This document shows positions 1,731 to 52,295 of a DNA stretch of 64,000 bases, piece after piece (within the stretch, counting starts at the first letter, position 1; each line of letters starts with the position of its first letter). Source of the stretch: an uncultured Planctomycetales bacterium (lineage in GTDB: Bacteria; Omnitrophota; Gorgyraeia; Zapsychrales; Fredricksoniimonadaceae); assembly GCA_964583975.1 (NCBI GenBank), contig CAZOXU010000001.1, positions 291,552 through 355,551 of the forward strand, read 5' to 3'. Both the position numbers and the translations under genes were made by a program. A model generated the notes under the pieces. That model saw only the letters and a list, made by a program, of their open reading frames with translations, did not search any database and had not been told where the DNA came from.

Positions 1731-1797
1731 GTCATTCCCGAATGCTTTAATCGGGAATCTAGTGCCTGGATCCCCGATTAAAACTTTCGGGGATGAC
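1731..1797. repeat. Family I palindromic element, copy 1 (67 bp): GTCATTCCCGAATG...CTTTCGGGGATGAC
   Basis: Terminal inverted repeats GTCATYCCCGAA / TTCGGGGATGAC. Each arm has its own hairpin (ATTCCCGA..TCGGGAAT; ATCCCCGA..TCGGGGAT). Intergenic between comEA and the CDF gene. Confidence 0.85.
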
Positions 1798-1825
1798 ACA
1801 TGATTTTAATGCCCAGGGGGAGGGC

Positions 1826-2719
1826 TTAATTTTGATCAGGTTCAATATGAACCAAAACATCAGCGATGGATAGCGGGGATGCTATCAGGGCATCTTTAAC
1901 CTTATGCCCAATATCGTGGGCCTGACGCACAGGCATATTACCATCAACTAGCACATGGATATCAACAAATAATTGCTGACCGCTTTTACGCACGCGACAT
2001 TTTTCAATTGCAAATACACCAGACACTTGAGAAGCGATTCTACGAACAGAAGCCTCTATTTGTTCTCCAGGAGAATGGTCCATAATCTCAGCAACCGCAT
2101 GTTTAAAAAGAATAATGCCATTAAAAACAATAATGCAGCTGGCTACAATCGCTGCCCAATTATCTGCACTTTCATACCCTTTGCCGCCAACCAAAGTGAT
2201 TGAAATTCCTATAAAAGCCGCCACAGAAGTTAAAGCATCGGATCGGTGATGCCATGCATCCGTCTTAACGGAGATGCTGCGAACATCTTCAGCCACAGAA
2301 AAAAGAAATCGGAACAAAAACTCTTTAATGATTACAACGATAATGAGCACAATTAAGGTGAAGGCTGCAGGCGCGTGATGGGGATTTTTAAGTCCTTTGA
2401 TACTCTCGATTGCAATCTCCACTCCCACGCCCAAAAGCACCAAAGATACAAACATTGCGGCCAAGGATTCAGCCTTGCCATGACCATAAGGATGGTTCTT
2501 ATCAGCAGGCAAAGAACCAATCTTAATCCCTCCCCAGACAATCACAGAAGAAATGATATCCATAATCGACTCAATCCCATCAGCGATTAGGGCGTAAGAA
2601 TTACCTACAATCCCCGTCACGGTTTTGACGATAGCTAAAACTACATTACAAACCAAACCTATCGAAACACCATGTAAGCTTTTAGAGAAATGATCTTTAG
2701 AATTTGAAACGCTTGTCAT
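1826..2719 (-). CDS. Cation diffusion facilitator (CDF) family divalent-cation efflux transporter
   Basis: Six-TM N-terminal domain with the HPYGHGKAE motif, plus a C-terminal cytoplasmic domain, resembling FieF/CzcD. Confidence 0.85.
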   Translation of the reverse strand: MTSVSNSKDHFSKSLHGVSIGLVCNVVLAIVKTVTGIVGNSYALIADGIESIMDIISSVIVWGGIKIGSLPADKNHPYGHGKAESLAAMFVSLVLLGVGVEIAIESIKGLKNPHHAPAAFTLIVLIIVVIIKEFLFRFLFSVAEDVRSISVKTDAWHHRSDALTSVAAFIGISITLVGGKGYESADNWAAIVASCIIVFNGIILFKHAVAEIMDHSPGEQIEASVRRIASQVSGVFAIEKCRVRKSGQQLFVDIHVLVDGNMPVRQAHDIGHKVKDALIASPLSIADVLVHIEPDQN

Positions 2720-2722
2720 AAG

Positions 2723-4312
2723 TTAAAATAGTTTTAATTGTTGCTTTTCTGCTTCCTTACTCTTGGATAGTTTGCGGCGTAATTTGGAATTTTCGTAAGC
2801 TTTTAAATCTTCTTCGATATCAGCCAAGAATAACGATGGCGGATTAAAATAAGTTTGTCCGAAAATTTGCCGGCGGCCAGCACGTGTGAGAAATAAATGC
2901 TCCTTGGCTCTTGTCATTCCAACATAGAAAAGCCGACGTTCTTCCTGAGCGTCTCCTTTAAGTTCATGGATATCTAACGGCAGCAGTCTAGCTTCACATC
3001 CGATCATAAAAACAACCGGAAATTCCAAACCCTTAGCCGCATGTAAGGTTAAAAGAGAGACTCGCTCGACCTTGTAATCCAAAGTTTCTTCAAAACAATC
3101 TAATATTTGTTCATCGATTTGTTCCTGCGGTAGGGGCAGGGTTTCCCTGCCCTTATTAGGGTCGGGCGACCCGACCCCTACAGTACGTTTAGCTGAAACC
3201 GAATAAGGAATTCCTAAATGATCAAGCGCTTCGATAATCACATTTTTCTGGGCATTGAGGCGATAGAGAATGGCGATATCGCCAAAACTTCTCTGAGCTC
3301 CCCGATAAGATTCAACCCGATGTGAATCTTGTGAAAACATGCTTACCCCACCGATTAACTGTTCGATCTGGTGCGCCACATACTCTGCCTCGGCGCGGTC
3401 AGTGGCTGCTTCATGGATCACCAATCTACCTTCATCATAAATCTTAGCTACTGCCTCTGGGACCTTTTGTGTGTTTTCCTTAGCAATCACCTGCGAGCTT
3501 GCGGTTAACAAATTAACGGTCGAACGATAATTCTCTGTCAGATAAAGCTTAGCTGCACCAGCAAAATCTTCTTCAAATCGATTAAAGAATCTCACCTGAC
3601 TACCGCGGAATGAATAGATACTTTGATTAGGATCACCAATTACGGTTAATATCGCCCCCTGCTGGATCAAAACCTTCAACAAGGCCACTTGGATCAAATT
3701 GATATCCTGGTATTCATCGACAAAAATATAGCGATAGCGCTGCTGGACTTGCGCGAGCACCTCTTCATTTTCCAATAACATCAAGGCCTCACGTAGGATA
3801 TCATCAAAATCAATTAGGCCCTTGGCTCGTAACAAACGGTGATATTTCTGAAAATCTGCGCTGGCATCAATGACCAATTGGGTCGATTTCGCCCAAGATA
3901 TTTCATCGAGCGCCTTTTTACGTTCAAGGGGATTTTTATCAGGAAACATCTCAGACAAGAAACCTTGGATATCTTGAGGCAACGCGATCTGGAAGTCTTG
4001 AGGCAACGGCGTATGCTGGCTAAACTCACGCAGTAAGCTTAAAGCAAATCGATGAAATGTCCCCACTGTGATGTGCCGAAAAAAACGAGCATCCTTAGCC
4101 TCTAAACGAGTGCGCATTTCATGAGCGGCTTTATTAGTAAATGTAATGGCCAGAATCTTTTCGTCTGGTTTTAAATTGTTGAGGGTGCGAAGGATTCGGT
4201 AGGTGATCGTATGAGTTTTGCCAGTTCCTGGACCAGCTACAATCAGAAGATGTGAACCCTCATGAGCAACAGCCTGCCATTGTGCATCATTAAGATCTTC
4301 GGGTCTATTCAT
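2723..4312 (-). CDS. UvrD/PcrA-family superfamily-1 DNA helicase (short, 529 aa)
   Basis: Motifs: I GPGTGKT, Ia TFTNKAAHEM, II VDEYQD, III GDPNQSIYSFRG, IV LTENYRS, V LHAAKGLEFPVV, VI YVGMTRAKE. Carries an in-frame palindromic-element insertion at 3130-3181. Confidence 0.85.
   Translation of the reverse strand: MNRPEDLNDAQWQAVAHEGSHLLIVAGPGTGKTHTITYRILRTLNNLKPDEKILAITFTNKAAHEMRTRLEAKDARFFRHITVGTFHRFALSLLREFSQHTPLPQDFQIALPQDIQGFLSEMFPDKNPLERKKALDEISWAKSTQLVIDASADFQKYHRLLRAKGLIDFDDILREALMLLENEEVLAQVQQRYRYIFVDEYQDINLIQVALLKVLIQQGAILTVIGDPNQSIYSFRGSQVRFFNRFEEDFAGAAKLYLTENYRSTVNLLTASSQVIAKENTQKVPEAVAKIYDEGRLVIHEAATDRAEAEYVAHQIEQLIGGVSMFSQDSHRVESYRGAQRSFGDIAILYRLNAQKNVIIEALDHLGIPYSVSAKRTVGVGSPDPNKGRETLPLPQEQIDEQILDCFEETLDYKVERVSLLTLHAAKGLEFPVVFMIGCEARLLPLDIHELKGDAQEERRLFYVGMTRAKEHLFLTRAGRRQIFGQTYFNPPSLFLADIEEDLKAYENSKLRRKLSKSKEAEKQQLKLF
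3130..3181. repeat. Family II nested-palindrome element, divergent copy (52 bp), inserted in-frame in the helicase gene
   Basis: GTAGGGG-CAGGGtttCCCTGCC-cttatta-GGGTCGGgcgaCCGACCC-CTAC. Outer IR GTAGGGG/CCCCTAC plus two internal hairpins. Encodes VGVGSPDPNKGRETLPL. Confidence 0.8.
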
Positions 4313-4315
4313 AAC

Positions 4316-5620: not shown

Positions 5621-5700
5621 GGGTTATAACGCGTCAACTGTCCGGAATTACCGGATAGTTGGATTATGCAAAGAATGCATATTGCTTTTCTGTACGGGGA

Positions 5701-8196
5701 TTAAATGACAATACTAACAAGCTTCTTGGGGACGACAATAATTTTCTTGATAGTAGCCCCTTCGAGATAGCGGGCCACATTGGCATCTGCCAGGCAGAGT
5801 TTTTTCAGATCTTCATCAGAGGTGCAAACCGATGTCGTAAACTGACCACGAACCTTACCATTGATTTGAACGGCATAGGTGACTTCATCTTGCACCAGGG
5901 CTCGCTCATCAAAGGCGGGCCAGGCGACCTTACTGACGGTCTGATCTTTTTTGCCCATCATCTGCCAAAGCTCTTCGCACAAATGCGGCGTAAATGGGGT
6001 TAACAATAAGACGAGGGTTTCAATGGCTTGATTCAACGTAACCGTTGATTCTTGCTTATACTTATCAACGGCATTTGCCAAGATCATAGCCTGACTAATG
6101 GCTGTATTAAATTTATAACCTTCTTCAAAAGCTTGGGTAATCTGTCGGATAGCTAGATGACGGGCACGCTCTAAGGTTTGATCTGCTCCCTGCTCGGTGG
6201 TTTCTTTCGCATAACGTTTCTCAACCATCAAGTAAACACGGTTTAAAAATCGCCAGGCCCCCTCTAAACCATCACTATTCCATTCGAGCTGATCTTCTGG
6301 CGGAGCAGCAAAAAGAATAAATAAACGTAAAGTATCTGCACCATATCTATTTAAAACTTCATCCGGATCAACTGTGTTGCCCCGAGATTTAGACATCACT
6401 TCTCCATCTTTAAGCACCATCCCCTGGGTTAAAAGACGGACAAACGGTTCATTTAAATCAGTTAGTCCTAAATCTTTGAAGAATTTAGTAAAAAAACGAG
6501 AGTACAACAAATGTAATATAGCATGCTCGATACCACCGATGTATTGATCGACCGCCATCCAATATTTGGCTTCATCCTTATTAAAGACTTCTTGGTTGTT
6601 ATCTGCAGAACAAAACCGTAAGAAATACCAGGAAGAATCAAAGAAGGTGGCCATGGTATCGGTTTCACGGCGGGCTGCTTTAGAACATTTAGGGCACTTC
6701 ACATTAACGAAATCTTCTACACGATTTAAAGGAGAGCCTCCCTGCCCCGTGATTTCCACATTCTTAGGTAATGCTACAGGCAATTGCGCATAAGGAACAG
6801 GAACCACACCGCAAGCCTCGCAATAAATCATGGGAATCGGCGTTCCCCAGTAACGCTGGCGGGAAATCAGCCAATCACGCAAGCGCCAATGAATGGTTGT
6901 TTTACCCATGCGTTCTTGAGCCATCCATTCAGCAATTTTCTTCTTAGCTTCTTCATTATTAAGACCATCAAATTGCTTCGAATTAACCAAAACACCCGCA
7001 TCTTCATAAGCCTTGGTCATATCTTTTAATTCAAAAACCTCTTTAGGGTTTTGAATAACAATTTTCATGGCAAGCTTATGGTTGGTAGCGAATTCAAAAT
7101 CGCGCTGGTCATGGGTGGGTACCGCCATAATGGCGCCAGTCCCATACTCCATCAATACATAGTCCCCAATATAAACCGGAATAGAATCACCATTAACAGG
7201 ATTGATGGCATAACGGCCTGTAAACACGCCTTCCTTACGCTGATCGCCTGACATACGAAGGCTTTTACTTTTATTGGCTGTCTTCTCAATAAAGGTCCCA
7301 ATTTCTTTTTCTTGAGGAGTGCCAGCGACAAGTTTTTTAACCAAAGGATGTTCTGGAGCCAGGACCACATAGGTAGCCCCAAAAATGGTGTCGGGACGGG
7401 TAGTGAAAACCGGAATAATTTCGTCCGTAGGGGCAGGCCCCTGTGCCTGCCCTTCTTGAGGGCGACCACGGGGGGTCGCCCCTACAATTTTAAAATAAAT
7501 CTCTACCCCAAAACTCTTACCAATCCAATTCTCCTGCATAGCTCGCACACGTGAAGGCCAATGCTCGAGCTGCTTTAAGTCTTCCAGTAAGGTTTCAGCG
7601 TAATGAGTAATCTTTAGATACCACTGATCTAAGTCTTTTTGTTCGACATTGTTTTTGCAGCGCCAGCAAGCGCCATCGATAACTTCTTCGTTGGCTAAGG
7701 TTGTCTGACAGCTAGGACACCAATTGACGGAAGAAGCTTTCTTATAGGCAAGCCCACGTTCATACATCTTTAAAAAGATCCACTGATTCCATCGGTAGTA
7801 GTCACTGTCGCAAGTGGCAATTTCACGGTCCCAGTCATAGGCAAAGCCCATTTTCTTGAGTTCTTCTCTCATCTGGTCGATACATTGGTAGGTCCACTGA
7901 CCTGGGTCGGTCTTATGTTTGATAGCCGCATTCTCAGCAGGCTGACCAAAGGCATCGTAGCCCATGGGGTGAAGCACATTAAACCCTTGCATCATTTTGT
8001 AACGGGCCATCACATCGCCGATGGTATAGTTACGCACATGGCCCATATGAATCTTGCCCGAAGGATAGGGAAACATTTCTAAGACATAATACTTCTTCTT
8101 AGAAGCATCCGCTTCGACTTTAAAAGTCTTGCGCTGTTCCCAGAAACGTTGCCATTTTGATTCAATGGATTTGATGTCGTTGGTGGTATAAGGCAT
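5701..8196 (-). CDS. leuS: Leucyl-tRNA synthetase
   Basis: HMGH (PSGKIHMGHVRNY) and KMSKS (VMSKSRGN) class-I motifs; TTRPDT editing-domain motif; bacterial LeuS length. Contains a 59-bp element insertion. Confidence 0.95.
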   Translation of the reverse strand: MPYTTNDIKSIESKWQRFWEQRKTFKVEADASKKKYYVLEMFPYPSGKIHMGHVRNYTIGDVMARYKMMQGFNVLHPMGYDAFGQPAENAAIKHKTDPGQWTYQCIDQMREELKKMGFAYDWDREIATCDSDYYRWNQWIFLKMYERGLAYKKASSVNWCPSCQTTLANEEVIDGACWRCKNNVEQKDLDQWYLKITHYAETLLEDLKQLEHWPSRVRAMQENWIGKSFGVEIYFKIVGATPRGRPQEGQAQGPAPTDEIIPVFTTRPDTIFGATYVVLAPEHPLVKKLVAGTPQEKEIGTFIEKTANKSKSLRMSGDQRKEGVFTGRYAINPVNGDSIPVYIGDYVLMEYGTGAIMAVPTHDQRDFEFATNHKLAMKIVIQNPKEVFELKDMTKAYEDAGVLVNSKQFDGLNNEEAKKKIAEWMAQERMGKTTIHWRLRDWLISRQRYWGTPIPMIYCEACGVVPVPYAQLPVALPKNVEITGQGGSPLNRVEDFVNVKCPKCSKAARRETDTMATFFDSSWYFLRFCSADNNQEVFNKDEAKYWMAVDQYIGGIEHAILHLLYSRFFTKFFKDLGLTDLNEPFVRLLTQGMVLKDGEVMSKSRGNTVDPDEVLNRYGADTLRLFILFAAPPEDQLEWNSDGLEGAWRFLNRVYLMVEKRYAKETTEQGADQTLERARHLAIRQITQAFEEGYKFNTAISQAMILANAVDKYKQESTVTLNQAIETLVLLLTPFTPHLCEELWQMMGKKDQTVSKVAWPAFDERALVQDEVTYAVQINGKVRGQFTTSVCTSDEDLKKLCLADANVARYLEGATIKKIIVVPKKLVSIVI
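7427..7485. repeat. Family II nested-palindrome element, copy A (59 bp), in-frame inside leuS
   Basis: GTAGGGG-CAGGcccctgtgCCTGCC-cttcttga-GGGCGACCacgggGGGTCGCCC-CTAC. Translated as RGRPQEGQAQGPAP immediately before the TTRPDT motif. Confidence 0.9.
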
Positions 8197-8212
8197 ATGG
8201 TGATAAACAATA

Positions 8213-8239
8213 AAGGGGATCGTTTAAAACAATCCCCTT
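8213..8239 (-). terminator. Hairpin AAGGGGAT-n11-ATCCCCTT between speH stop and leuS start; possible intrinsic terminator or attenuator
   Basis: 8-bp perfect stem, 11-nt loop. On the transcribed (minus) strand it is followed by UAUUGUUUAU. Confidence 0.3.
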
Positions 8240-8796: not shown

Positions 8797-8955
8797 AAAG
8801 TGATCTAAAATAAAAGAAATTTTTCTTGAGCTGCCTTAATTTGGGAATGGATTTATTTTATAGCAAATCAAAATATAAAATGTATAAAATTTTCAAAATT
8901 TACGGCTAAAAGGGGAATTTGATTTTTTAAGTCAAATCGAATAGAATGTTCTTCT

Positions 8956-9156
8956 ATGAAAATCACAATTAACGGCACATCCAAAGAATTCACCAACAAC
9001 CCGCATCTTTCAGACCTGGTCAACCAGTTCTGCAAAGAGCCCCGACACATCATCACCGAAGTTAATGGCAATATCATCGTGGCCAACAACTGGGGCAGTA
9101 CCGCCCTTAAAGATGGCGATACTGTCGAATTAGTGGCCTTTGTTGGAGGCGGTTAA
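8956..9156 (+). CDS. thiS: Sulfur-carrier protein ThiS
   Basis: 66 aa, ends in VGGG (Gly-Gly C-terminus), directly upstream of thiG. Confidence 0.8.
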
Positions 9157-10938: not shown

Positions 10939-10943
10939 AAAAT

Positions 10944-11048
10944 GTCATCCCCGAATGCTTTTATCGGGGATCCAGGCACAAGTGCCAGCCAGAGGCTGGT
11001 CAGCCCTGGACTGAAACTAGGTTCCCGATTAAAACGTTCGGGGATGAC
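10944..11048. repeat. Family I palindromic element, copy 2 (105 bp, extra GC-rich hairpin inserted in its centre)
   Basis: GTCATCCCCGAATGCTTTTATCGGGGAT...GTTCCCGATTAAAACGTTCGGGGATGAC, with the internal palindrome CCAGCCAGAGGCTGG. Intergenic between thiH and thiF. Confidence 0.85.
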
Positions 11049-11060
11049 ATAAGGTTATCC

Positions 11061-12508: not shown

Positions 12509-14476
12509 TTAAATGACTCGATCATTTCCCCCATCTATGGGGATTTGCGCGCCGGTGGTCTTGGCAAAGATGCGACCTGCCAAGCAACAAACTAAATCAG
12601 CCACATGATAAGAGGTGATTTCTGTCTTTAAAAGATTGCTCTTTTTGTAGTCTTCAATCGACAGACCATAAGCTTTGGCGCGCTTCTCTAAAACTTCCTT
12701 GGTCCAAATCGCTGTATCAAATACTTGATTAGGATGAACCACATTCACACGAATACCTTGGGGCGCTAATTCCAGAGCTGCCACTCTGGCCATTTGGGTT
12801 AGACCTGCCTTGGCGACCGAATACGCCCCTGCTCCAGGGCCTGGTGCTGGAACATTCTTAGAACCAATGATAATAAAGGTCGGATCAATACCCTGACTCA
12901 AATACGAAATAGCAGCCTTCAACAAACGCTGATGCGAAGTTAAATTAATCTTCACGCTGCGATCCCAAGTCTCAGGATTCATATTCTCAAGAGTTTCGCT
13001 GGCAGGAAAAATACCTGCATTACTCACCACAATATCCAAACCACCAAATCGTCTGACCGTGGCAGCCACAGCTTTCTGCAATTCAGCATCCTTAGTCACA
13101 TCACAAACCATTCCTACCACACTTACTCGGTTAAAGATCTTGGTAATTTCCTTATTGATATCAAGCGCCACTACGTGTGCTCCCTGAGCAGCTACTCTCT
13201 CAACACAGGCCTTGCCGATCCCGCTCGCCGCGCCAGTCACCAATGCAATCTTGCCTTGCAGCTCGAGCGGCTTAGGGTTCTTGGCAAGCTTGGCTTGCTC
13301 GAGCTCCCAGTATTCCATCTCAAAAATATCTTTCTCAGACAAAACCTTCCAGCCGCCCAAGCCCTCGGCAATCTGAATAGCAGCAATCGTATGCTCCACG
13401 ATATCGGAAATGATCTGGGCATCCTTGATCGAGCGACCAAAGCTTACTAACCCTTGTCCTGGCCACACAGCCCAGCGTGGGGCTAGATCAAGGCACTTCA
13501 ATTTGTTATTGGTATTGCAGTCAAAATAGAATTGATAATTCTTAGCGTAGGCTACGACATCCTTGGCAGGATCTTTGCCGATGACAACCGGAATAGGTTT
13601 GGTGCGAATCACGTGATCAGGGGTGAGTGTGCCTCGGGTGGCGATTTTTCCTACATCTGGAAGTTTTGAGAAGCCAACTGAACCAGCATCGTTTCTTAAA
13701 TCGGCAATAACTGCTGCCCCCAAAGCTACCGAGACAGCCTTTCGTATTTTACTTAAGGTTAATAACTCTTCCGAGCCAGCCTTGGCCGAAGCAATCTTAA
13801 TTCGCTTCTTAGCAATGAACTTCTCTGCCTCGATGACTAACCGGATATGATTTTCGTAGCTCGTCTTGGCATCATCACCAAAGGTGAATAAGCCATGGTT
13901 TAATAAAACAATGCCCTCGCACTTACTCCAATTCAGATCACGTGTCATTTCATAAACTTTTTTAGCTAACACAAAGCCAGGCATTACATAAGGAACAACT
14001 AAAACGCGATTGCCGTAAATTTCTTTAATAAGCGAGGCACCCTTAGGCGTATTGGTAATGGTTACAACAGCATCAGTGTGTGAGTGATCGACAAAGGTAT
14101 GTGGAATAATGGCGTGCAGGATGGCTTCGACCGACGGATTGGGTGCATGCGGATTAATCATGGCTGCTCTTTGCCCCACGACCATTTGCGCATCAGACAG
14201 CTCTGAAAAGGTAGCCATACGCTTTAAGGCGTCCAACCTGACAGCAGCAAACCCTTCCGCTTCAATCGTAGCTAAATCCCAGCCACTGGCTTTAATATAG
14301 AGAACTTCTTGGGTGTCTTGGAAGAAATCTTTGACGAGGGCTTTGACAGAAGTATTGCCACCCCCGTGCATAACCAGGGATGGCTCTCTTCCTAAAAGAC
14401 GAGACGTGTAAACACGTAGCTTTAGTGGATCATTTCCACAAACATCCGCTACCTGTTGGTCCCACAAACTTTTCAT
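12509..14476 (-). CDS. Bifunctional class II aldolase/adducin-domain plus short-chain dehydrogenase (rhamnulose-1-phosphate aldolase/SDR-like)
   Basis: N-terminal class II aldolase domain; C-terminal SDR with the TGAASGIGKA Rossmann motif and a YxxxK region. Confidence 0.75.
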   Translation of the reverse strand: MKSLWDQQVADVCGNDPLKLRVYTSRLLGREPSLVMHGGGNTSVKALVKDFFQDTQEVLYIKASGWDLATIEAEGFAAVRLDALKRMATFSELSDAQMVVGQRAAMINPHAPNPSVEAILHAIIPHTFVDHSHTDAVVTITNTPKGASLIKEIYGNRVLVVPYVMPGFVLAKKVYEMTRDLNWSKCEGIVLLNHGLFTFGDDAKTSYENHIRLVIEAEKFIAKKRIKIASAKAGSEELLTLSKIRKAVSVALGAAVIADLRNDAGSVGFSKLPDVGKIATRGTLTPDHVIRTKPIPVVIGKDPAKDVVAYAKNYQFYFDCNTNNKLKCLDLAPRWAVWPGQGLVSFGRSIKDAQIISDIVEHTIAAIQIAEGLGGWKVLSEKDIFEMEYWELEQAKLAKNPKPLELQGKIALVTGAASGIGKACVERVAAQGAHVVALDINKEITKIFNRVSVVGMVCDVTKDAELQKAVAATVRRFGGLDIVVSNAGIFPASETLENMNPETWDRSVKINLTSHQRLLKAAISYLSQGIDPTFIIIGSKNVPAPGPGAGAYSVAKAGLTQMARVAALELAPQGIRVNVVHPNQVFDTAIWTKEVLEKRAKAYGLSIEDYKKSNLLKTEITSYHVADLVCCLAGRIFAKTTGAQIPIDGGNDRVI

Positions 14477-14489
14477 AAATTAATCTCAT

Positions 14490-14557
14490 GTCATCCCCGA
14501 ATGTATTTATCGGGGATCTAGTACACTAGGTTCCCGATTAAAGCATTCGGAAACGAC
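14490..14557. repeat. Family I palindromic element, copy 3 (68 bp, right terminus degenerate)
   Basis: GTCATCCCCGAATGTATTTATCGGGGATCTAGTACACTAGGTTCCCGATTAAAGCATTCGGAAACGAC. Intergenic between the aldolase/SDR gene and cysK. Confidence 0.85.
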
Positions 14558-14568
14558 AGAAAGTTTTC

Positions 14569-15501
14569 TTAGCTTCGGTATTCTGCGAAAAGATCCGTCG
14601 ATAAATAGCGTTCGCCTGTTGAAGGGATGATGGCTACAATCAACTTACCCTTATTCTCTGGACGTCGACCAACCTGAATAGCAGCTTCAATCGCCGCACC
14701 AGAAGAAATACCGCAAAGAATCCCTTCTTCTTTAATAAGACGTTTGGCCATGGCAAAGGCTTGATCGTTATCGATTTGGATCACTTCATCAATGAGCTTA
14801 GTGTCTAAGATACTGGGTACAAATCCTGCTCCGATTCCTTGAATTTTATGAGGACCAGGTGCCCCGCCAGAAAGAACTGGAGAAGCTTTAGGTTCGATCG
14901 CAATCGCCTTAAATGAAGGTTTGCGAGCTTTAATCACTTGAGACACACCGGTTAATGTTCCGCCAGTACCAATACCAGAAATCAGAATATCAACCTTACC
15001 ATCGGTATCGCGCCAAATTTCTTCAGCGGTAGTCAGACGATGGATTTCAGGATTAGCTGGGTTATCAAACTGTTGAGGCATGTAATATTTAGCATCGCTG
15101 TCAGCCAACTCTTTGGCCTTCTTGATCGCTCCACGCATGCCTTCTGGGCCAGGGGTTAAGATCAACTCAGCACCCAAAGCTTTTAGAAGGGCTCGACGTT
15201 CGAGTGACATGGTTTCAGGCATAGTCAAAAGGAGTTTATAACCTTTCACAGCGCAAACAAACGCTAAGGCAATACCAGTATTTCCAGAAGTTGGCTCGAC
15301 AATGACAGTGTCTTTCTTGATTTTGCCTGCTTTTTCAGCAGCTTGAATCATGTTAAAACCGATGCGATCTTTGACTGAGCCTAGTGGGTTATAAAACTCC
15401 AACTTGCCAACGATGGTAGCCTGGCAGTCCTTGGTGACTTTATTGATTCTAACAAGCGGTGTATTACCTATTAATTCTGTGATGTCATTTGCAATTTTCA
15501 T
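14569..15501 (-). CDS. cysK: Cysteine synthase A (O-acetylserine sulfhydrylase)
   Basis: PLP-enzyme motifs [12 protein letters not shown] and GIGTGGT; 310 aa. Confidence 0.9.
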
Positions 15502-34463: not shown

Positions 34464-34482
34464 AGATATAGTGTCATTCTGA

Positions 34483-34549
34483 GCGGAGCGAAGAATCTTA
34501 AAGTAGCGATGATCTTGAGATCCTTCGTCCCTTTAGGACTCAGGATGAC
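34483..34549. repeat. Family IV palindromic element (67 bp): GTCATTCTGAGCGGAGCGAAGAATC ... GATCCTTCGTCCCTTTAGGACTCAGGATGAC
   Basis: Inverted-repeat arms GTCATYCTGAG..CGAAGRATC. Same GTCATYC terminus and same 67-bp length as Family I copy 1. Sits between the lptE stop and the holA start. Confidence 0.8.
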
Positions 34550-34560
34550 GAAATTTTCAT

Positions 34561-39000: not shown

Positions 39001-40745
39001 TCTGATGTAATTTGATCTGTTGGCTCCTCATTAATAAACTGATCAACAACTACAGATGGGGTGAGCTTTACTACGTCACTTTGTAGCGATTCAACTTTTT
39101 CTTCTAACTTTTTCAGCAATTGATTCAAAACTGCCAATTCTCCAACCAATTTATTGCCTGCGCCTTGAACTCGTCGCAAAGCTCTGACATTTTCTCGATC
39201 CTTCAACATTAATCTTGTTGCACGAATAACTGTCAATATTTGCTGACGCTTTTCAGCATCCCCTATCGCAAGACGCTTCAAATCGATACCACGAAACACA
39301 TTAGAAACCGCAGCAATTCTTGCCAAAATTGATTGAAAAAGGAGAACGTCTTTACCATTTCCGCTGATCGCACCTTCCATACTTGTAATAACACTGTCGA
39401 ATTTTATATTTAACGTTCTGATCAAATCCTCTGAATCTTCTTCAGCCTTTGTCATCGCCGCATCAGCCTCAGACTTCTCTGCTAATACAGCTTCTACAGC
39501 ATCTAACTTTCCCGCCTCGGTAGTCAGGATCGGCGTTGCCATAGCAGAATCGGTTGTTGTGCGCATTACCTTTCCATATTCATTCTTTGTTCCACCTGAA
39601 AAATACTTCCTTGGCACGGGCTGATGGGTGAATCGGTCGGTGTCTTCTTTAATATAGTTAAATACACCCTTCTTATAAGCCTTAATGTATTGCTGATAAA
39701 TGGCTTCATTGTTCTTAGGATCTTGATTAATACCGTTAACCTTGGCTTTGTTAGCATAGATCTTGCTTAATAGAGATTCCTTCAAAGCTCGCTTGTACCA
39801 GGCTGCTAAAATCATGCCGCTATACACCTGACGAAGCATGACAAAGTTCTTGCCTTCATTGACTTCTTTTTCAAGGGCTGGAAGTACTATTTCACGGACG
39901 ATTTGGGAGCCGATTTGATTGGTTTCCGTAGGGGCAGGCCCCTGTGCCTGCCCTTCTTGAGGGCGACCACGGGGGGGCGCCCCTACAGCATTTTTATTCA
40001 TAGCCATGTAATCCTCTTCTAGCATCACCTTCAAATGATTCTTTAACACATACGCTGTATTACCAGATTCATACACCGTGGCATCATCTGGCACAATCCA
40101 TACCTTATTAAAGGTATTAACTGGAATCTCTGTGCTGCCAAATTGCTGCTGAGCTTGGGTATACACCTTATCCCAGAACTTCTTACCTAACTCATCTTCA
40201 GGGTATATTAAAGAAGCAGTGATTTGCTTTAATAGGTAGTCTTGAGCTAATAAATCCCGGCCCATCTCAGTCTTACCAAAGTCTTCTTCTACGATACGGT
40301 TCTTTTCATAGGGTGATAGGTTGACCCATTGATTCTCATCAGGCACGGCTAAAGAAGCCATAAAGTACTTAATTAAATTCTTATAAGCGATTTGTTTATC
40401 TTGATCAGATAGACTTTCATCACCTTTGTAGATGATGAAGTCGAATTTAAGAGGATTTTCAGGATGAATAACTAAACCTTTAAGATGTGCAGGGGTGAAT
40501 TCAGGGCTTAGAGCAACTCTGACTCCTGGACTTGGCATCCATGGCATCGAACCAGCAGCCACTTGAGAATAAGCAGGCCGTTGAATGGAAGTACTAAGAA
40601 AAGTCACTAAAATGGTGATAGAAATAAACTTACGAATGGTCATAAAAACCCTTCTTCCTGAGGTATAAATAGTAAATTTGGGGTCAAAAATTCTACACTT
40701 CTTGAAATATGCGGCAAGTATGCCATGGGAAAAGCGCTTTGTCAA
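36090..40745 (-). CDS. Giant secreted modular protein (probable start 40642, ~1517 aa) with coiled-coil repeats, recurrent D-[SA]-A-M-x motif, and a C-terminal acyl-carrier-protein-like domain
   Basis: Long single ORF. Signal peptide follows the internal Met (MTIRKFISITILVTFLSTSIQRPAYS), which is preceded by AGGAAG. Carries a palindromic-element insertion at 39928-39986. The ACP-like segment is FSVDSQDVIVLMIELEDSFNIRIPNDKTASLRTVGDIVQYV. Confidence 0.7.
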   Translation of the reverse strand: MTKRFSHGILAAYFKKCRIFDPKFTIYTSGRRVFMTIRKFISITILVTFLSTSIQRPAYSQVAAGSMPWMPSPGVRVALSPEFTPAHLKGLVIHPENPLKFDFIIYKGDESLSDQDKQIAYKNLIKYFMASLAVPDENQWVNLSPYEKNRIVEEDFGKTEMGRDLLAQDYLLKQITASLIYPEDELGKKFWDKVYTQAQQQFGSTEIPVNTFNKVWIVPDDATVYESGNTAYVLKNHLKVMLEEDYMAMNKNAVGAPPRGRPQEGQAQGPAPTETNQIGSQIVREIVLPALEKEVNEGKNFVMLRQVYSGMILAAWYKRALKESLLSKIYANKAKVNGINQDPKNNEAIYQQYIKAYKKGVFNYIKEDTDRFTHQPVPRKYFSGGTKNEYGKVMRTTTDSAMATPILTTEAGKLDAVEAVLAEKSEADAAMTKAEEDSEDLIRTLNIKFDSVITSMEGAISGNGKDVLLFQSILARIAAVSNVFRGIDLKRLAIGDAEKRQQILTVIRATRLMLKDRENVRALRRVQGAGNKLVGELAVLNQLLKKLEEKVESLQSDVVKLTPSVVVDQFINEEPTDQITSDELQAAADYLEDGIADRTLTELKYVKALGAIKDAMKTKKDAAMAAKPRLKKMSPLQIFDLAVSKNYKTALQTIYLSSLWAAHHAIGVAIVDSFLLSSRQRKRIAKQITNDKKIMQRIWDEILRRDSAMAAQKSSQAIADAQKKVEELEGQFDGLNRELAIARAEDKFAKMTDLEAALRKTEKSLLRAQEELNLLQGFDAAMDVVTLRNGSQASKEVVDSTMEKLRGVLNQTLGALTLADLEDLARSPDFKIYDGPKATLQKAGLINTDSSIDPDIRNIVLSAIEAKGIDTKLVSPIKEGQGVVTTAKADAAMANRSDLQISPSVRKGQLEAQQRELQAQIDSLQKELELDRTKADSLRPQIAALQIQLERIKVNILALLPEIDNGRDDSDAAMSGELPPQARLEAGINQSNLGAAKLLTASKQKGELEQRQRSIQAQIDSFQRELDAEYAKNTAAAGVNVVANPSIISRLRVQIDVLKRELENVKAEINTAWAEISNATGSGDAAMRGELPQTSLDNLLKQQGKINDRIAQERKLMNAAAVQNNESDRLQHAMEIETLQRELDSLDTAIHQAQAEIGRPDQDDHQARFVDEAMIAITKIKIPLWREAFDQLVNAPDFNGLQEQKMAFTGKKTGVLQATSGEVDVFYNYQNANYWMIGFNKIHTSVSWSSGKLKISRDGKADLEISQNNDPMVAFERYLSEGVENTTIVLSDDAFQRITAAELLTQEGALSIVAEKLNIEVISKTDYRRKLQNKESELSAQRVKVNVDYVSALGRGYGAQQGGAYSPTVLGNQLQKLDQEIKAIKDQINALYDSAMTTKSEGVRQKVHEAIKKVVPSLDHIEFKDTDDLQKDFSVDSQDVIVLMIELEDSFNIRIPNDKTASLRTVGDIVQYVTDKISDSAMATKGGIDFNAANLNLQIKRDGAGVPLPISQQNLENIHIDGLVPVIMEIRPAITLPMFSQLQKNTQLAKG
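39928..39986. repeat. Family II nested-palindrome element, copy B (59 bp), in-frame inside the giant ORF
   Basis: Nearly identical to copy A (differs by about 2 nt, in the second hairpin). Encodes PPRGRPQEGQAQGPAPT. Confidence 0.9.
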
Positions 40746-41998: not shown

Positions 41999-42063
41999 AA
42001 AATTAGGGACAACCCCCTATTTTATCCTTTCACTTAAGAAAATAGGGAGTTGTCCCTAATTTT
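41999..42063. repeat. Family III palindromic element, copy 1 (65 bp): AAATTAGGGACAACCCCCTATTTT ... AAAATAGGGAGTTGTCCCTAATTT
   Basis: Hairpin with an ~20-bp stem; stem differs from copies 2/3 by paired changes (ACCC/GAGT vs GCGC). Encodes the last 8 codons plus stop of miaA. Lies 2 nt upstream of the hflX start. Confidence 0.85.
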
Positions 42064-44944: not shown

Positions 44945-45616
44945 TTATTGGGCACGGCTTAATTCAAACACAAAACCCTTAACGCGGCCGGTCACAGGAT
45001 CTTTGACCTTTGAGGTCATTCGGGCTATCTCTTCTGTCGAACACTCGTCTTCAAATTTCACCACCAGCCGGCGGCTAGGCTTAGAGCGGTTATGGACCTT
45101 GGCTACAGGTTCCTGGCCCAAAAAACAACCCTTGGTATACGAGGTAAATTTAAACTCATCGATATTTAGAATAAATTCATCCGCCTGAAAATCTCCGCCG
45201 GAGACGGATCCGCCTTTGGCGGAAACGCCCATCAAAGGGATTTTTCTTTCAAGTCGAAAGAGGGTAAATTCCTCATCAGAAACATTACTTTCTGTTATTT
45301 CATTTGAGAAAACCACGCGGCCTGAATCGATATTCATATACGACCGATACTCTGCCGATGGGATAAGGCTTGTATGATTAAGCTTAGCATAGCGCTCAAG
45401 ATGTTTTAACAACGCCTCGTTAGCCACTTGAGGTACGCTTAATAAAAAGTGATCTTCCGATCGCTTTTCTTGGGCGCAGGTGGCAATGACCCGGCCATGT
45501 TGATTTAAAAAGGCATTAAAAGGCTGATCTAGTGAATTAGACGTCAGGCCGTTTAAGAATTTCTCAGCATTGCCGCTAACTTCTAAGACAATATCATCAA
45601 GTTTGTATAGTCGCAT
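44945..45616 (-). CDS. YgfZ/GcvT-like folate-binding protein
   Basis: Conserved KGCFLGQE motif of the YgfZ family. Confidence 0.5.
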   Translation of the reverse strand: MRLYKLDDIVLEVSGNAEKFLNGLTSNSLDQPFNAFLNQHGRVIATCAQEKRSEDHFLLSVPQVANEALLKHLERYAKLNHTSLIPSAEYRSYMNIDSGRVVFSNEITESNVSDEEFTLFRLERKIPLMGVSAKGGSVSGGDFQADEFILNIDEFKFTSYTKGCFLGQEPVAKVHNRSKPSRRLVVKFEDECSTEEIARMTSKVKDPVTGRVKGFVFELSRAQ

Positions 45617-45618
45617 AT

Positions 45619-45687
45619 AAATTAGGGACAGCGCCCTATTTCACCCTATTTTTTCTTGCTTGCTAAATAGGGCGCTGTCCCTAATTT
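45619..45687. repeat. Family III palindromic element, copy 2 (69 bp): AAATTAGGGACAGCGCCCTATTT caccctattttttcttgcttgct AAATAGGGCGCTGTCCCTAATTT
   Basis: Perfect 23-bp inverted arms. Provides the cca C-terminus KLGTAPYLASKKK plus stop. Abuts the start of the downstream gene. Confidence 0.9.
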
Positions 45688-47052
45688 AGCTGCCAACACC
45701 AACGCTTCTTGTTTCGTAGCTATCTTCCCCAATGCTTGAGCCTCTTGAACTTCAGATAGAATCTTCGTAAATAGCGGCGATGGTTTTAATTTAAGCTTTT
45801 TGATTAAATCATGCCCCGTCAACAAACGTACCAGAGGTTTCTGATTTTGACTGTCGATAAAACGCTCGATCACCTGCCAGCAGGTTTTACGATGATGCTC
45901 ACTCTTGGCCTTCTTGGTCAAAGGCCCACGTGTGGCTCGCTGATCAGCGAGCGCTAAAAGTAAAACACTTAAAGCTTCCTGCTTTGTATCACGCAAAAAA
46001 CGAAAAACCATTCGCTCGGAAGGTTGTTTAAAATTTGACATATATCCTGGGCGCAAATGCCAGGCCACCATATCTTCTAAGAAATATCGCTCCTTGACCG
46101 CCAACTTTAAATGTTTAGCCACAATGCGGGTGATATCAGCCCCCACCTTTTCATGACCATGAAAGGTCATGCGGTCTTTTTCTTTTTTCTTGGTGTCAGG
46201 TTTACCGATATCATGCAACAGACAAGCAAACTTCAACAACGCATATCGCTTGTGATTGGCTGCAATTTCTTCTTGGAGATAATTTTGAATAAATGGATCT
46301 TCGATTTCGAGAGCTAACAGTTCAAACTGACGTACCACCTCGAGCGAATGCTTCCAAACATCCAGATGATGATATCCGCCTTGATGAACGCCTTCCATCA
46401 CACCGAGTTGGGGCATGATCTTTTGCAGTAATCCTGCTTTGTGCATCAAAACAATGGTCTCAACCGTTCTGCTAGAAGCTAAAACCTTAAACCATTCTTC
46501 TCGAACCCGCTCGACCGAAACCTTACTTATGCGACTAATATCTTTTTGAATCTGCTTAAAAGTCTTAGCTTCGATCTTAAATCCCAACTGAGCCGATAAA
46601 CTAAAGGCTCGCATTAGTCTCAGCGGATCATCAGCAAAAGCCCGGGACGCGACCATCCTGATAGTCTTTGATTTCAGATCTTTAGTGGCCCCACGATAAT
46701 CCAATATCTTCGTATCATTAATACTCTGGCATAAGGTATTGATCGTAAAATCACGTAGGGCTACATCCTTCTGCAGTGATTCAGCACGAAAATCAGAAAA
46801 ATCATAGGTCCACAGTTGCCCTTCTTCTTTTTTGACAACCCGTCCGCACGGATGTTCTTCATCTAAAAGAACAAAAGCCCCTTTGATCTTTTTAGCAAAG
46901 GCCCGAGCCAGTTCGATTGCATTCTTCGAGACCGTAAAATCAAAATCAAAACCTTCGCGGTTTAAATATTGGTCGCGTAAACGGCCGCCAACCAAATAAA
47001 CCGAAACTCGGCCTCGAGCTGCTAATGTTTGGATAGTAGATAAATACTTCAT
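45646..47052 (-). CDS. cca: CCA-adding tRNA nucleotidyltransferase / poly(A) polymerase family with HD domain
   Basis: Pol-beta nucleotidyltransferase N-terminus YLVGGRLRDQYL..DFDF and HD motif LLHDIGKP. Confidence 0.75.
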   Translation of the reverse strand: MKYLSTIQTLAARGRVSVYLVGGRLRDQYLNREGFDFDFTVSKNAIELARAFAKKIKGAFVLLDEEHPCGRVVKKEEGQLWTYDFSDFRAESLQKDVALRDFTINTLCQSINDTKILDYRGATKDLKSKTIRMVASRAFADDPLRLMRAFSLSAQLGFKIEAKTFKQIQKDISRISKVSVERVREEWFKVLASSRTVETIVLMHKAGLLQKIMPQLGVMEGVHQGGYHHLDVWKHSLEVVRQFELLALEIEDPFIQNYLQEEIAANHKRYALLKFACLLHDIGKPDTKKKEKDRMTFHGHEKVGADITRIVAKHLKLAVKERYFLEDMVAWHLRPGYMSNFKQPSERMVFRFLRDTKQEALSVLLLALADQRATRGPLTKKAKSEHHRKTCWQVIERFIDSQNQKPLVRLLTGHDLIKKLKLKPSPLFTKILSEVQEAQALGKIATKQEALVLAAKLGTAPYLASKKK

Positions 47053-47453: not shown

Positions 47454-47459
47454 ATCGAG

Positions 47460-47948
47460 CTATTTGCCTTTCTTCTTTTTATTCTTTCCTAAAATCGTCT
47501 GCAATTCCGACATAAACTGGTTCACATCACGAAACTGGCGATACACAGAAGCAAATCTTACATAAGCCACTTCATCAACAGTTGAAAGCTGATTCATCAC
47601 CATCTCACCAATATCTTTAGCCTCAACTTCATGATCGTATTTTTTACGAACGACCCGCTCGATCTCATCCACCATTGATTCAATTTGATCAACACTCACA
47701 GGCCTTTTTTCACAAGCCTTGATGATCCCATTTGTAATCCGTGTTCGATCAAAAGTCTGTCTTCGGCCGTCACGCTTAACTACCATCAAAGGCACCTGCT
47801 CAATATATTCGTAGGTGGTAAAACGTTCTTCACATTTAGGACATTTGCGTCGGCGACGAATGGATGTCCCATCGCTGTTCATGCGAGAATCAACAACATT
47901 CGTATCTTTATAGTGACAAGCAGGACAGCGCATATATTTACATGTCAT
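47460..47948 (-). CDS. nrdR: Transcriptional repressor NrdR (conserved N-terminus MRCPACH begins at 47933)
   Basis: Zinc ribbon CPACH..CPKC followed by an ATP-cone. The first five codons (MTCKY) are contributed by the terminus of a Family I element. Confidence 0.85.
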   Translation of the reverse strand: MTCKYMRCPACHYKDTNVVDSRMNSDGTSIRRRRKCPKCEERFTTYEYIEQVPLMVVKRDGRRQTFDRTRITNGIIKACEKRPVSVDQIESMVDEIERVVRKKYDHEVEAKDIGEMVMNQLSTVDEVAYVRFASVYRQFRDVNQFMSELQTILGKNKKKKGK

Positions 47949-48066
47949 CCCCGAAATCTTTTACCTGCCTGCCGGCAGGCAGGTCGGGGATCTAGAGCTT
48001 GCAAGAAAATCTCTGATTTCCGCCAAAGGCGGACCAGCCTCAGGCTGGAAAACATTCGGGCTAGAC
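47944..48066. repeat. Family I palindromic element, copy 4 (123 bp, divergent, with internal CCTGCCTGCCGGCAGGCAGG palindrome)
   Basis: GTCATCCCCGAAATCTTTTACC...TCGGGGATCTAGAGC...GGAAAACATTCGGGCTAGAC. Intergenic between nrdR and glyA. Confidence 0.8.
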
Positions 48067-48073
48067 AGATTAA

Positions 48074-49312: not shown

Positions 49313-49329
49313 AATCTCCTCTTAAGATT

Positions 49330-49397
49330 GTCATCCCCGAATGCTTTTATCGGGGATCTAGTGCACTAGTTGCCCGACTAAAACATTCGGGCATGAC
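49330..49397. repeat. Family I palindromic element, copy 5 (68 bp)
   Basis: GTCATCCCCGAATGCTTTTATCGGGGATCTAGTGCACTAGTTGCCCGACTAAAACATTCGGGCATGAC. Intergenic between glyA and rpiB. Confidence 0.85.
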
Positions 49398-49402
49398 AGG
49401 TG

Positions 49403-50919: not shown

Positions 50920-50923
50920 AATT

Positions 50924-50996
50924 AAATTAGGGACAGCGCCCTATTTCACCTTATTTTTTCTTTCTTACTTGCTAAATAGGGCGCTGTCCCTAATTT
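50924..50996. repeat. Family III palindromic element, copy 3 (73 bp)
   Basis: Arms identical to copy 2. Provides the purD C-terminus KLGTAPYLASKKEKIR plus stop. Abuts the tsaC start. Confidence 0.9.
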
Positions 50997-52259
50997 AGCA
51001 AGGGCTTTTTGTCCAATATCACGTCTAAAGAAGATATGATCAAATTGGATCTTATCGACAGATTCATAGGCCTTGGCAATGGCTTTTTCAAGTGAAGCAC
51101 CTAAACTAGCAACACCTAAAACTCTTCCCCCCGCTGTGACTAGAGAACCGCCATCATTTTTTGTTCCTGCGTGAAAAACAATAGTGTCTGGATCATTAAT
51201 ATCTTCTAGGCCCTTGATCTCATAACCATTTTGATATTTGCCAGGATATCCGCCGGAAGTCAAGACCACACAGACACATGATCGCTGGTCCCATTGTACC
51301 TTTAATTCATTGAGTCTGCCGTCACACGAAGCCAACATGATTTCAACAAGATCGCTTTTCAATTTAGGTACAATACTCTGCGTTTCTGGGTCACCAAAAC
51401 GCGTGTTAAATTCTAACACAAATGGCCCGCTATTGGTTAACATTAAGCCTGCGTACAATACTCCCTTAAATGGTACACCCTGGGCATACATTCCCCGCAA
51501 AGTAGGTTCAATAATTTTCTTAATAATGATATCTAAAATCTCTGCAGTCACAATTGGGGCAGGACAATAAGAACCCATACCACCGGTATTCGGCCCTAAA
51601 TCTTCATCAAAAATCCGTTTATGATCTTGAGCGCTAGGCAAAACCAAAAAATGTTTGCCATCACAAATCGCCAACACCGAGGCTTCCTGACCTTGCAGGC
51701 AATCCTCAACGACGATTCTTTCTCCAGCCGTTCCATAAAGCTTCTGAACCATGATTTCATCAACAGCTATCTGGGCTTCTTTTAAATTGGCGCACACATA
51801 CACACCTTTACCTGCTGCAATCCCGTCAGCTTTAACTACCAAAGGAAATCTCGCTGAGTTCAAGAAATCTAAGGCATCGATAAATCTTTCAAAAACTTTA
51901 TAGCTGGCGGTTGGGATATCATGACTCGATAAGAATTGTTTCGTATAAATCTTGCTGCCTTCTAATTGTGCAGCTTCCTTACTTGGACCAAAGATCTTCA
52001 GTCCTTTTTGAGAAAAGACATCAACAATACCAACAACCAAGGCTGCCTCGGGGCCTACCACGGTCAGGTCAATTTTCTTAGATAGAGCAAATTTCAACAA
52101 GCCTTCGATATCATCAACAGCAATATTGACGCACTCGGCAATCTGAGCGATACCACCATTGCCTGGGGCGCAATAAAGCTTCTTAACCTTAGGACTCTGT
52201 TTGATCTTCCAGCACAGCGCATGCTCTCTGCCGCCAGAACCAATGACTAGAATGTTCAT
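50946..52259 (-). CDS. purD: Phosphoribosylamine-glycine ligase
   Basis: ATP-grasp PurD; MNILVIGSGGREHAL N-terminus. Confidence 0.9.
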   Translation of the reverse strand: MNILVIGSGGREHALCWKIKQSPKVKKLYCAPGNGGIAQIAECVNIAVDDIEGLLKFALSKKIDLTVVGPEAALVVGIVDVFSQKGLKIFGPSKEAAQLEGSKIYTKQFLSSHDIPTASYKVFERFIDALDFLNSARFPLVVKADGIAAGKGVYVCANLKEAQIAVDEIMVQKLYGTAGERIVVEDCLQGQEASVLAICDGKHFLVLPSAQDHKRIFDEDLGPNTGGMGSYCPAPIVTAEILDIIIKKIIEPTLRGMYAQGVPFKGVLYAGLMLTNSGPFVLEFNTRFGDPETQSIVPKLKSDLVEIMLASCDGRLNELKVQWDQRSCVCVVLTSGGYPGKYQNGYEIKGLEDINDPDTIVFHAGTKNDGGSLVTAGGRVLGVASLGASLEKAIAKAYESVDKIQFDHIFFRRDIGQKALAKLGTAPYLASKKEKIR

Positions 52260-52268
52260 TTTTTCCCT

Positions 52269-52295
52269 GTACGGGCTGGGTAACCCAGCCCCTAC
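52269..52295. repeat. Mini single-hairpin relative of Family II: GTACGGG-CTGGGtaaCCCAG-CCCCTAC
   Basis: Shares the CCCCTAC terminus; the other terminus is one mismatch from GTAGGGG. Fills the purM-purD intercistronic gap and overlaps the purM stop. Confidence 0.6.

Follow-up and report, generated by a model that had tools for sequence, protein, structure and literature searches.

The 64-kb window analysed here (64,000 nt of contig CAZOXU010000001.1, assembly GCA_964583975.1) belongs to an uncultured bacterium of the phylum Omnitrophota and carries 13 small structured repeats between and within its genes. Very probably, it is a compact Omnitrophota stretch that has been colonised by three known kinds of small non-autonomous hairpin repeat: dimers of TGTC/CGTC-tagged hairpins (families A and E), partnered by the nuclease Ssn, and two sorts of repetitive extragenic palindromic (REP) element, one without the usual GTAG tag (family B) and one with it (families C and D), partnered by REP-associated tyrosine transposases (RAYTs). 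Element anatomy, enrichment and hairpin potential are established directly here, as is insertion/deletion polymorphism without target-site duplication. In other genomes, ssn and RAYT genes are wrapped by the corresponding arms.

The repeats of the window

Direct and inverted repeat searches, an intergenic inventory and a hairpin scan gave 13 structured repeats within 1729-52295, with a summed length of about 955 bp or 1.5% of the window. A preliminary description, made from the sequence alone, had counted 13 copies and about 0.9 kb; both figures hold, and the repeats are well above chance expectation. Its end coordinates are also sound: 1731 corresponds to the GTCAT of A copy 1, and the final base of D is at 52295. 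All copy counts cover the 64-kb window, which is part of one Omnitrophota metagenome-assembled genome (MAG). The window is about 95% coding and has 2918 bp of intergenic DNA in total, about one quarter of which is filled by the ten intergenic elements. The remaining three, all of them C dimers, are intragenic and in frame. Copies had been described both inside open reading frames (ORFs) and at gene ends, and both placements are real: besides the in-frame C dimers, B copies supply the last codons and the stop of upstream ORFs. The statement that all copies lie in minus-strand transcription units does not stand, since the A copy at 10942-11050 sits between the plus-strand genes thiH and thiF.

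The seeds of the three multicopy families are enriched over dinucleotide shuffles. The A seed (14-mer) has 11 matches against a mean of 3.8, and none of 100 shuffles reaches 11; the B seed (17-mer) has 6 matches against 0.03 and the C seed (15-mer) 4 against 0.62. When 12 elements were folded as single-stranded DNA (ssDNA), 11 gave z-scores from -3.5 to -10.6, the weaker fold being that of E (z = -2.0). At minimum energy, every dimer folds into a single long hairpin that pairs arm with arm, and the form with two small hairpins is an alternative conformation. An outer inverted repeat enclosing two hairpins had been proposed as the common design. This describes A, C and E, is weaker for B, whose arms each form about 8 bp with a bulge, and is wrong for D, a single hairpin. 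A scan of the window against Rfam at gathering thresholds matched no family.

The nearest named relatives of the leucyl-tRNA synthetase (LeuRS) and serine hydroxymethyltransferase (SHMT) of the window are MAGs of Candidatus Omnitrophota/Omnitrophica. A cyanobacterial origin, suspected from the GTAG repeats, was ruled out: the HIP1 sequence (GCGATCGC) occurs only twice, and the proteins are Omnitrophota-like.

Families A and E and the Ssn nuclease

In families A and E, TGTC/CGTC-tagged hairpins are joined in inverted dimers of the NTS/dRS3/SRM type. An A arm is laid out as TGTC-AT-CCCCGA-(9-nt loop)-TCGGGG-AT-C-YAG, and the pattern TGTC-AT-CCCCGA...TCGGGG-AT is seen in nine of the ten A arms, those of decayed copies being diverged. 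A full-text search with the related sequence GTCATTCCCGC led to a recent study of Neisseria (Chenal et al., 2025, PMC11893778), which defines the NTS as CGTCATTCCCGCGMAVGCGGGAATCYRG and also gives a degenerate pattern, the "Ssn-related motif" (SRM). The partner of the NTS is SsnA, a 94-aa GIY-YIG nuclease whose binding is confined to the ssDNA form of the hairpin and whose cut falls just upstream of this hairpin; ssn genes often have the motif on both sides, and the cytosine right after the palindrome is the base most critical for Ssn binding (PMC11893778). The A arms, TGTCATCCCCGA-ATGCTTTTA-TCGGGGATCYAG, parallel the NTS. They end in ...TCGGGGAT-C-YAG, that is, with a cytosine directly 3' of the palindrome and then a YRG tail.

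Five A copies are present. Copy 1 (1729-1799) is an inverted dimer of two TGTC-tagged, SRM/NTS-like hairpins that folds with -22.1 kcal/mol (z = -8.2) and lies between a ComEA-like ORF (1367-1702) and a cation diffusion facilitator (CDF) transporter gene (1826-2719). Copy 2 (10942-11050), between thiH and thiF, is a mosaic with a 41-nt insert between its arms, including a CCAGCC-N3-GGCTGG module. Copy 3 (14489-14559) separates a PALP-enzyme gene (14569-15501) from an aldolase/SDR (short-chain dehydrogenase/reductase) gene (12509-14476). Copy 4 (47942-48068), between the SHMT gene and nrdR, is a partly decayed mosaic, with a palindrome nested in the left loop and two further small hairpins. Copy 5 (49329-49398) lies between rpiB and the SHMT gene. 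Family E is a single copy (34470-34553), a TGTC/CGTC-tagged heterodimer (GTCATTCTGAGCG... / ...CTCAGGATGACG) of the A-like superfamily.

The two expanded A copies have the CCAGCC-N3-GGCTGG module in common (internal regions 10976-11016 and 47963-48045). Within the left hairpin loop of the second is a perfect 22-nt palindrome, ACCTGCCTGCC|GGCAGGCAGGT (47963-47984), and a CCGCC-AAA-GGCGG hairpin follows further along. Such nesting recalls the bacterial interspersed mosaic elements (BIMEs) and Neisseria intergenic mosaic elements (NIMEs).

The left arm of copy 5 is an exact 30-mer that was found at 68 loci in species-representative genomes. Of these loci, 26 are in Omnitrophota MAGs, often on several contigs per MAG, and 14 in Geobacter/Desulfuromonadales; the others carry many labels, including a Zoogloea MAG and the isolate Vibrio superstes JCM 21480. 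The partner arm at most of them is of the classical GGATTCCCGC-N4-GCGGGAATGACA type. The presence of the arm on several separate contigs of related Omnitrophota MAGs argues against an isolated hotspot. Among 2.9 million viral contigs, neither an A 29-mer nor a B 19-mer had a match, and no plasmid matched the A dimer.

A profile made from Ssn-like proteins found homologues at three A-bearing loci, L059, L027 and L018 (Omnitrophota). At L018, an A-type arm ends 2 nt before the ATG of ssn, and an inverted arm encodes the C-terminal residues of the protein. The arm tags face outward, matching the geometry of the window dimers. The protein is a single GIY-YIG domain whose Y7/Y18/E65 have the spacing of the catalytic Y6/Y17/E64 of Neisseria SsnA. 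A search by sequence found no solved structure for Ssn. Altogether, a small single-domain GIY-YIG gene with the motif alongside was seen at L018, L027, L059, L162 and L092, all from related genomes. On B-bearing contigs, Ssn genes are flanked by TGTC-tagged hairpins and not by B arms. It is direct adjacency alone that discriminates the pairing of Ssn with its repeats; crude enrichment does not, gene frequency being uninformative (3-4 per 479 kb at A-bearing loci vs. 4 per 646 kb at B-bearing loci).

The L018 locus, 6.9 kb of Omnitrophota DNA, holds nine SRM-type arms between 1138 and 6788, comprising three dimers and the pair that wraps ssn. Its dimer density, about one per 1.7 kb, is higher than that of the window.

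Family B and its RAYT

Family B is a REPIN-like dimer (two REP hairpins in inverted orientation) without the canonical tag. Its arms read AATTAGGGACAGCGCCCTATTT, and TTAG or ATAG stands where GTAG would be expected. Copy 1 (41999-42063; arms AAAATTAGGGACAACCCCCTATTTT) lies between miaA and hflX and overlaps the 3' end of miaA. Copy 2 (45613-45693) supplies the last 15 or so codons and the stop of the ORF for the CCA-adding enzyme and abuts the next start codon. Copy 3 (50923-50997) has 24-nt arms that are 100% complementary, and it lengthens purD by 11 residues relative to the sister gene. MiaA, the CCA-adding enzyme and PurD all have repeat-encoded C-termini.

The 71 loci retrieved for family A and for the sister genomes had no B arms, but more than 120 metagenome contigs did. 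In 31 cases there, the arms form short dimers in which the two co-vary, with palindromy running a variable 1-12 nt past the conserved core. These contigs are not close kin of the window, protein identity being at most about 62%. RAYT homologues were found at 15 of the 120 B-bearing loci fetched, and nine RAYT ORFs are flanked on either side by a B arm no more than 37 bp away. Two representatives of the B-flanked RAYTs scored 52-58 bits on Pfam Y1_Tnp, and the RAYT of L117 reached 84.1 bits on the NCBIfam model for REP-associated tyrosine transposase, above the equivalog cut-off of 80. Since RAYT genes are wrapped by B arms and Ssn genes by TGTC-tagged hairpins, the pairings are specific.

Families C and D

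Families C and D are GTAG-tagged REP/REPIN elements. In each unit, a GTAG tag precedes a GC-rich hairpin; C has two units in inverted orientation, i.e., a REPIN, and D is a singlet. The D element (52269-52295) is a GTAG/GTAC-ended hairpin between purM and purD. The C dimers at 7427-7485 and 39928-39986 read GTAGGGGCAGGC...GCCTGCCC / GGGCGACC...GGTCGCCCCTAC, and a C-like variant lies at 3129-3182. All three are in frame within minus-strand ORFs and open with GTA GGG (Val-Gly). The variant encodes VGVGSPDPNKGRETLPLP in a UvrD-like helicase (ORF 2723-4312), the copy at 7427 encodes VGATPRGRPQEGQAQGPAPT in the editing domain of leuS (ORF 5701-8196), and the one at 39928 encodes VGAPPRGRPQEGQAQGPAPT in a 1551-aa ORF (36090-40745). 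The last two copies are 98% identical in DNA, and their peptides are nearly equal.

The loop of LeuRS that carries the insert has none in 32 of the 40 closest homologues, and the nearest relatives have decayed or different inserts in the same loop. At the site used in the window, the sister genome's UvrD carries an insert that has diverged, and it has a second one that the window lacks.

In this sister genome (GCA_044225175.1, LeuRS 81% identical; locus L069), a 183-aa gene that the window lacks directly follows leuS. Its product scores 31.6-37 bits on Pfam Y1_Tnp, for which the cut-off is 23. One GTAG REPIN forms the 3' end of the gene, and another lies in frame inside it. In the sister gene (12596-13147), the internal REPIN encodes VGAGSEPAFMPNGAGLEPAPT, between the HUH motif and the C-terminal half. 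In the window, leuS is directly followed by the next gene at the place where the sister has its RAYT-like gene. The four C/D copies of the 64-kb window compare with eight GTAGGGGC sites in 66 kb of the sister loci L069 and L071.

The search for RAYT/IS200-like partner genes recommended by the preliminary description was well directed for B and, with the RAYT-like candidate of the sister genome, for C and D; for A and E, the partner is the GIY-YIG nuclease Ssn and not an HUH transposase.

Gain and loss of copies between related genomes

Comparison with the syntenic sister loci L069, L070 and L071 showed that the elements come and go. Seven of the intergenic elements could be compared, and none of them is present at the orthologous junction; no target-site duplication was found at any filled-vs.-empty comparison. 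The genes thiH and thiF overlap (ATGA) in L069 and L070 but are 122 bp apart in the window, where the A mosaic lies. The PALP and aldolase genes likewise overlap in L069 and are separated by an A copy in the window. SHMT and nrdR are 9 bp apart in the sister vs. 125 bp in the window, and an unrelated 65-bp spacer takes the place of the A copy between rpiB and the SHMT gene. Between purM and purD, the sister has 12 bp where the window has the D hairpin; it has 11 bp and 3 bp in place of the B copies at purD-sua5 and after cca, respectively. The earlier view of the repeats as non-autonomous elements agrees with these empty sites and with the lack of a partner gene in the window.

The spacing of genes in a closer relative (91% SHMT identity) indicates that it lacks both B copies; the A copy before the SHMT gene is probably present. 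The absence of the B copies fits the perfect B arms of the window. The empty site of B copy 2 in the sister (L071, 13530-13550) reads AAATTA|TAATTT, the outer ends of the B element. This match, like the variable palindromy of the metagenome dimers, may stem from a preference for certain targets, from a footprint left by excision or from the formation of dimers by inverted duplication.

The sister has no copy of A or B in 66 kb of syntenic DNA, and carries other repeat families (e.g., GTCATTGCGAG...) at other junctions. Repeat populations thus turn over quickly across genomes with about 80-85% protein identity. The sister locus L069 (16133-16294 and 20422-20529) has a different TGTC-tagged dimer family (TGTCATTGCGAG...CTCGCAATGACA) where the corresponding junctions of the window are empty.

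How the copies may have spread

The cognate of A and E would be a nuclease of about 95 aa, the GIY-YIG protein Ssn, that binds the ssDNA hairpin and cuts just 5' of it; the cutting of ssDNA beside the hairpin is known from the literature (PMC11893778). The partners of B, C and D would be RAYTs of the Y1/HUH, IS200-like type acting on REP hairpins in ssDNA, these enzymes being associated with REPs in other bacteria (PMC3116915; PMC2817692). Such enzymes, encoded elsewhere in the genome or formerly present, may have spread the window copies in trans. The copies that survive would be those that spared genes, either by lying between stop and start codons or by being in frame and stop-free in tolerant loops.

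Several observations pull the other way. The window has neither an ssn gene, as judged by the Ssn profile, nor a RAYT gene in its 64 kb, and its copies could be relics. The mobilisation of repeats by their own Ssn is hypothetical, even in Neisseria. With the tags facing outward, the pair of cuts made by Ssn would lie on opposite strands, and that alone does not excise a single-stranded unit. The published SRM pattern, HGTCWYN(0-2)YYVSBRHN(0-5)WNVSBRGN(0-2)RNCYNB (PMC11893778), has no match in the window in its strict form. It misses the A arms because the unspecified stretch between their half-sites is 7 nt, two more than the five allowed; if up to 8 unspecified bases are permitted in the loop instead of 5, four A arms match, against 0-1 in 30 shuffles. 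Some of the cross-phylum labels of the A 30-mer may be binning errors, several of the "Pedobacter", "Bacillota" and "Dongiaceae" flanks resembling those of Desulfuromonadales. Family B does not have the GTAG tag. Finally, the 183-aa gene of the sister, although its best NCBIfam match is "REP-associated tyrosine transposase", scores 67-72 bits where the cut-off is 80, and it is flanked on the 3' side only, by REPIN sequence that, like the copy inside the gene, is similar, not identical, to C.

A bolder version deserves mention. The SRM-ssn-SRM unit of L018 might be a self-mobilising element, with the A dimers as gene-less derivatives spread by the GIY-YIG nuclease itself; we give this a small but real chance. 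An insertion sequence (IS)-like architecture of ssn units was put forward as a hypothesis by the authors of the Ssn study (PMC11893778). If the idea is true, Ssn would be the catalytic core of a new class of ssDNA transposition, neither HUH nor DDE, and this could account for an identical 30-nt arm from Omnitrophota to Vibrio.

Alternative explanations

The elements might instead be chiefly regulatory signals in RNA or DNA that are selected by the host (punctuating operons, acting as attenuators or terminators, or stabilising mRNA) and not selfish or mobilised repeats. Ten of the 13 lie exactly in short gaps between co-directional genes, and B arms were flagged as weak terminator-like hairpins with T-rich tails on the transcribed strand. 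In E. coli, REPs do affect mRNA stability and translation, a subject also treated in PMC3733652. The count of terminator-like hairpins is, however, not significant (19 vs. 12.1 +/- 4.0 in shuffles), three copies lie within coding sequences, and the same arms stand beside unrelated genes in distant lineages and around their own nuclease or transposase genes. The seven empty sister junctions also speak against it, the genes there being tightly coupled or overlapping without the element. We find a primarily regulatory origin unlikely; a role at the RNA level as a side effect is possible.

It had also been suggested that repeats of such density and diversity point to a genome of the host-restricted or small-population kind and to an element/host system not described before. 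CGTC-tagged repeats are indeed abundant in Rickettsia, Wolbachia and Neisseria, and neither of two papers on Omnitrophota mentions repeats of the present kinds. The contrast drawn with a free-living type of metabolism is itself uncertain, because host-dependent traits have been reported for the phylum (PMC10066038), which would favour restriction. The A arm does not mark it, however, as the exact sequence occurs in Geobacter/Desulfuromonadales MAGs, the Zoogloea MAG, the V. superstes isolate and further taxa. Free-living Pseudomonas, enterobacteria and Opitutus are no less typical carriers of tagged REPs (PMC3733652). Nor do we see the combination as a sign of an undescribed system: all families fall in described superfamilies with known partner types, and the same tagged-hairpin superfamilies have been catalogued across eight phyla (PMC3733652). 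Both parts of this suggestion taken together are, in our judgement, quite improbable.

Classical MITEs (miniature inverted-repeat transposable elements), i.e., DDE-type insertion sequences that have terminal inverted repeats, have lost internal parts and move by cut-and-paste, would likewise be small and intergenic, with inverted symmetry at their ends and presence/absence polymorphism, but each arm is itself a tagged hairpin, and the lack of any target-site duplication in filled-vs.-empty comparisons, together with arm-bounded genes that encode a GIY-YIG nuclease and Y1 transposases rather than DDE transposases, makes this origin scarcely credible and excludes the classical DDE type.

Comparison with known systems

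Colonisation by Ssn- and RAYT-partnered repeats, the explanation we prefer, can be set against what is known of each kind. A and E share with the NTS/SRM-Ssn system (PMC11893778) the [C/T]GTC tag, the GC-rich stem starting with AT, the C after the palindrome and the YRG tail, as well as a small single-domain GIY-YIG gene wrapped by arms in a related Omnitrophota MAG and a rarity of repeats inside genes. They differ in that the A hairpin loop is 9 nt vs. about 4 nt, and that the arms form tight homodimers in the window, some with nested modules. Moreover, no Omnitrophota appear in the main text of that study, and the window has no ssn gene.

The CGTC-tagged REP superfamily is closely similar. 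Its tag is often TGTC, its 8-9-bp stem starts with AT, its tail is CCA and it is mostly dimeric; it includes dRS3 and the Rickettsia palindromic elements (RPEs) RPE-4 and RPE-6, and no dedicated transposase was known for it in 2013 (Di Nocera et al., 2013, PMC3733652). The same survey catalogued dimers, multiple families per genome, sites after co-directional ORFs and in-frame copies in housekeeping genes, UvrD/Rep helicases among them. The window arms resemble RPE-4, RPE-6 and Wolbachia CGTC-4 in the TGTC variant, the 8-bp AT-starting stem, the CCA-like tail, the prevalence of dimers and the siting after co-directional ORFs. The A loop is longer than the 4-5 nt of CGTC-1 to CGTC-4, and Omnitrophota are not among the five phyla listed (PMC3733652). 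A partner for the CGTC type, missing until then, came with the 2025 study (PMC11893778).

B and C resemble the REPIN-RAYT systems (Nunvar et al., 2010, PMC2817692; Bertels and Rainey, 2011, PMC3116915) in having two inverted REP hairpins with a short spacer that fold into one long hairpin, and, for B, in RAYT genes flanked by B arms (metagenome contigs); for the GTAG type, the sister genome has a candidate, the RAYT-like gene with GTAG REPINs. The differences are the missing GTAG tag of B and the intragenic location of all three GTAG dimers of the window. In addition, the exact B 19-mer occurs in contigs with proteins at most about 60% identical to those of the window, whereas REPINs of Pseudomonas and enterobacteria are mostly lineage-specific and vertically inherited, unlike B.

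Insertion of palindromic elements in frame in protein genes of Rickettsia was reportedly described by Ogata et al. in 2000. The window inserts are likewise in-frame and stop-free, add about 18-20 residues to housekeeping proteins and include one in a UvrD/Rep-type helicase. They are GTAG-tagged REPINs, whereas the intragenic RPE-4 and RPE-6 of R. conorii are CGTC-tagged (PMC3733652), and the host is not an obligate intracellular alphaproteobacterium. As to BIMEs and the Neisseria mosaics, the A copies at 10942 and 47942 are comparable in that tagged hairpins bracket small palindromic modules, one of which is shared. The window differs in having only these two mosaics, each with one arm pair, and no long arrays.

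The repeats, then, belong to kinds already described and are not a new kind of element. What appears to be new is the host phylum, the SRM variant with a 9-nt loop outside the published pattern, the non-GTAG REPIN family (B) with its RAYT, and the occurrence of three systems together in a 95%-coding region. SRM-Ssn and REPIN-RAYT, two repeat-enzyme systems connected recently, are extended to an uncultured phylum of very small cells, and three such systems share a region with less than 5% intergenic DNA. They probably persist where they fit exactly between a stop codon and a start codon, or where they lie in frame in tolerant loops, even in the editing domain of an essential tRNA synthetase. 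Since the published SRM pattern misses the 9-nt-loop variant, which is widespread, surveys that use it undercount these repeats.

The repeats also affect the annotation of MAGs of this kind. Gene callers run ORFs into the elements, creating false C-termini and one false upstream start. The latter concerns nrdR: the terminal ATGACA of A copy 4 (47942-47948) makes an in-frame ATG 15 nt upstream of the conserved start (MRCP...), with the result that mechanical ORF calling begins the gene within the repeat.

Two minor features of the window may be added. A 359-bp "gap" upstream of thiG (8797-9155) holds a short thiS-like ORF ending in ...VAFVGGG; Rfam at gathering thresholds detected no thiamine pyrophosphate (TPP) riboswitch anywhere in the window. 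The 1551-aa ORF that carries a C dimer has only a weak match to a phosphopantetheine-binding domain, near its C-terminus. Sister genomes have still larger ORFs in its place (1752 and 2321 aa), which fits the very long proteins reported for Omnitrophota.

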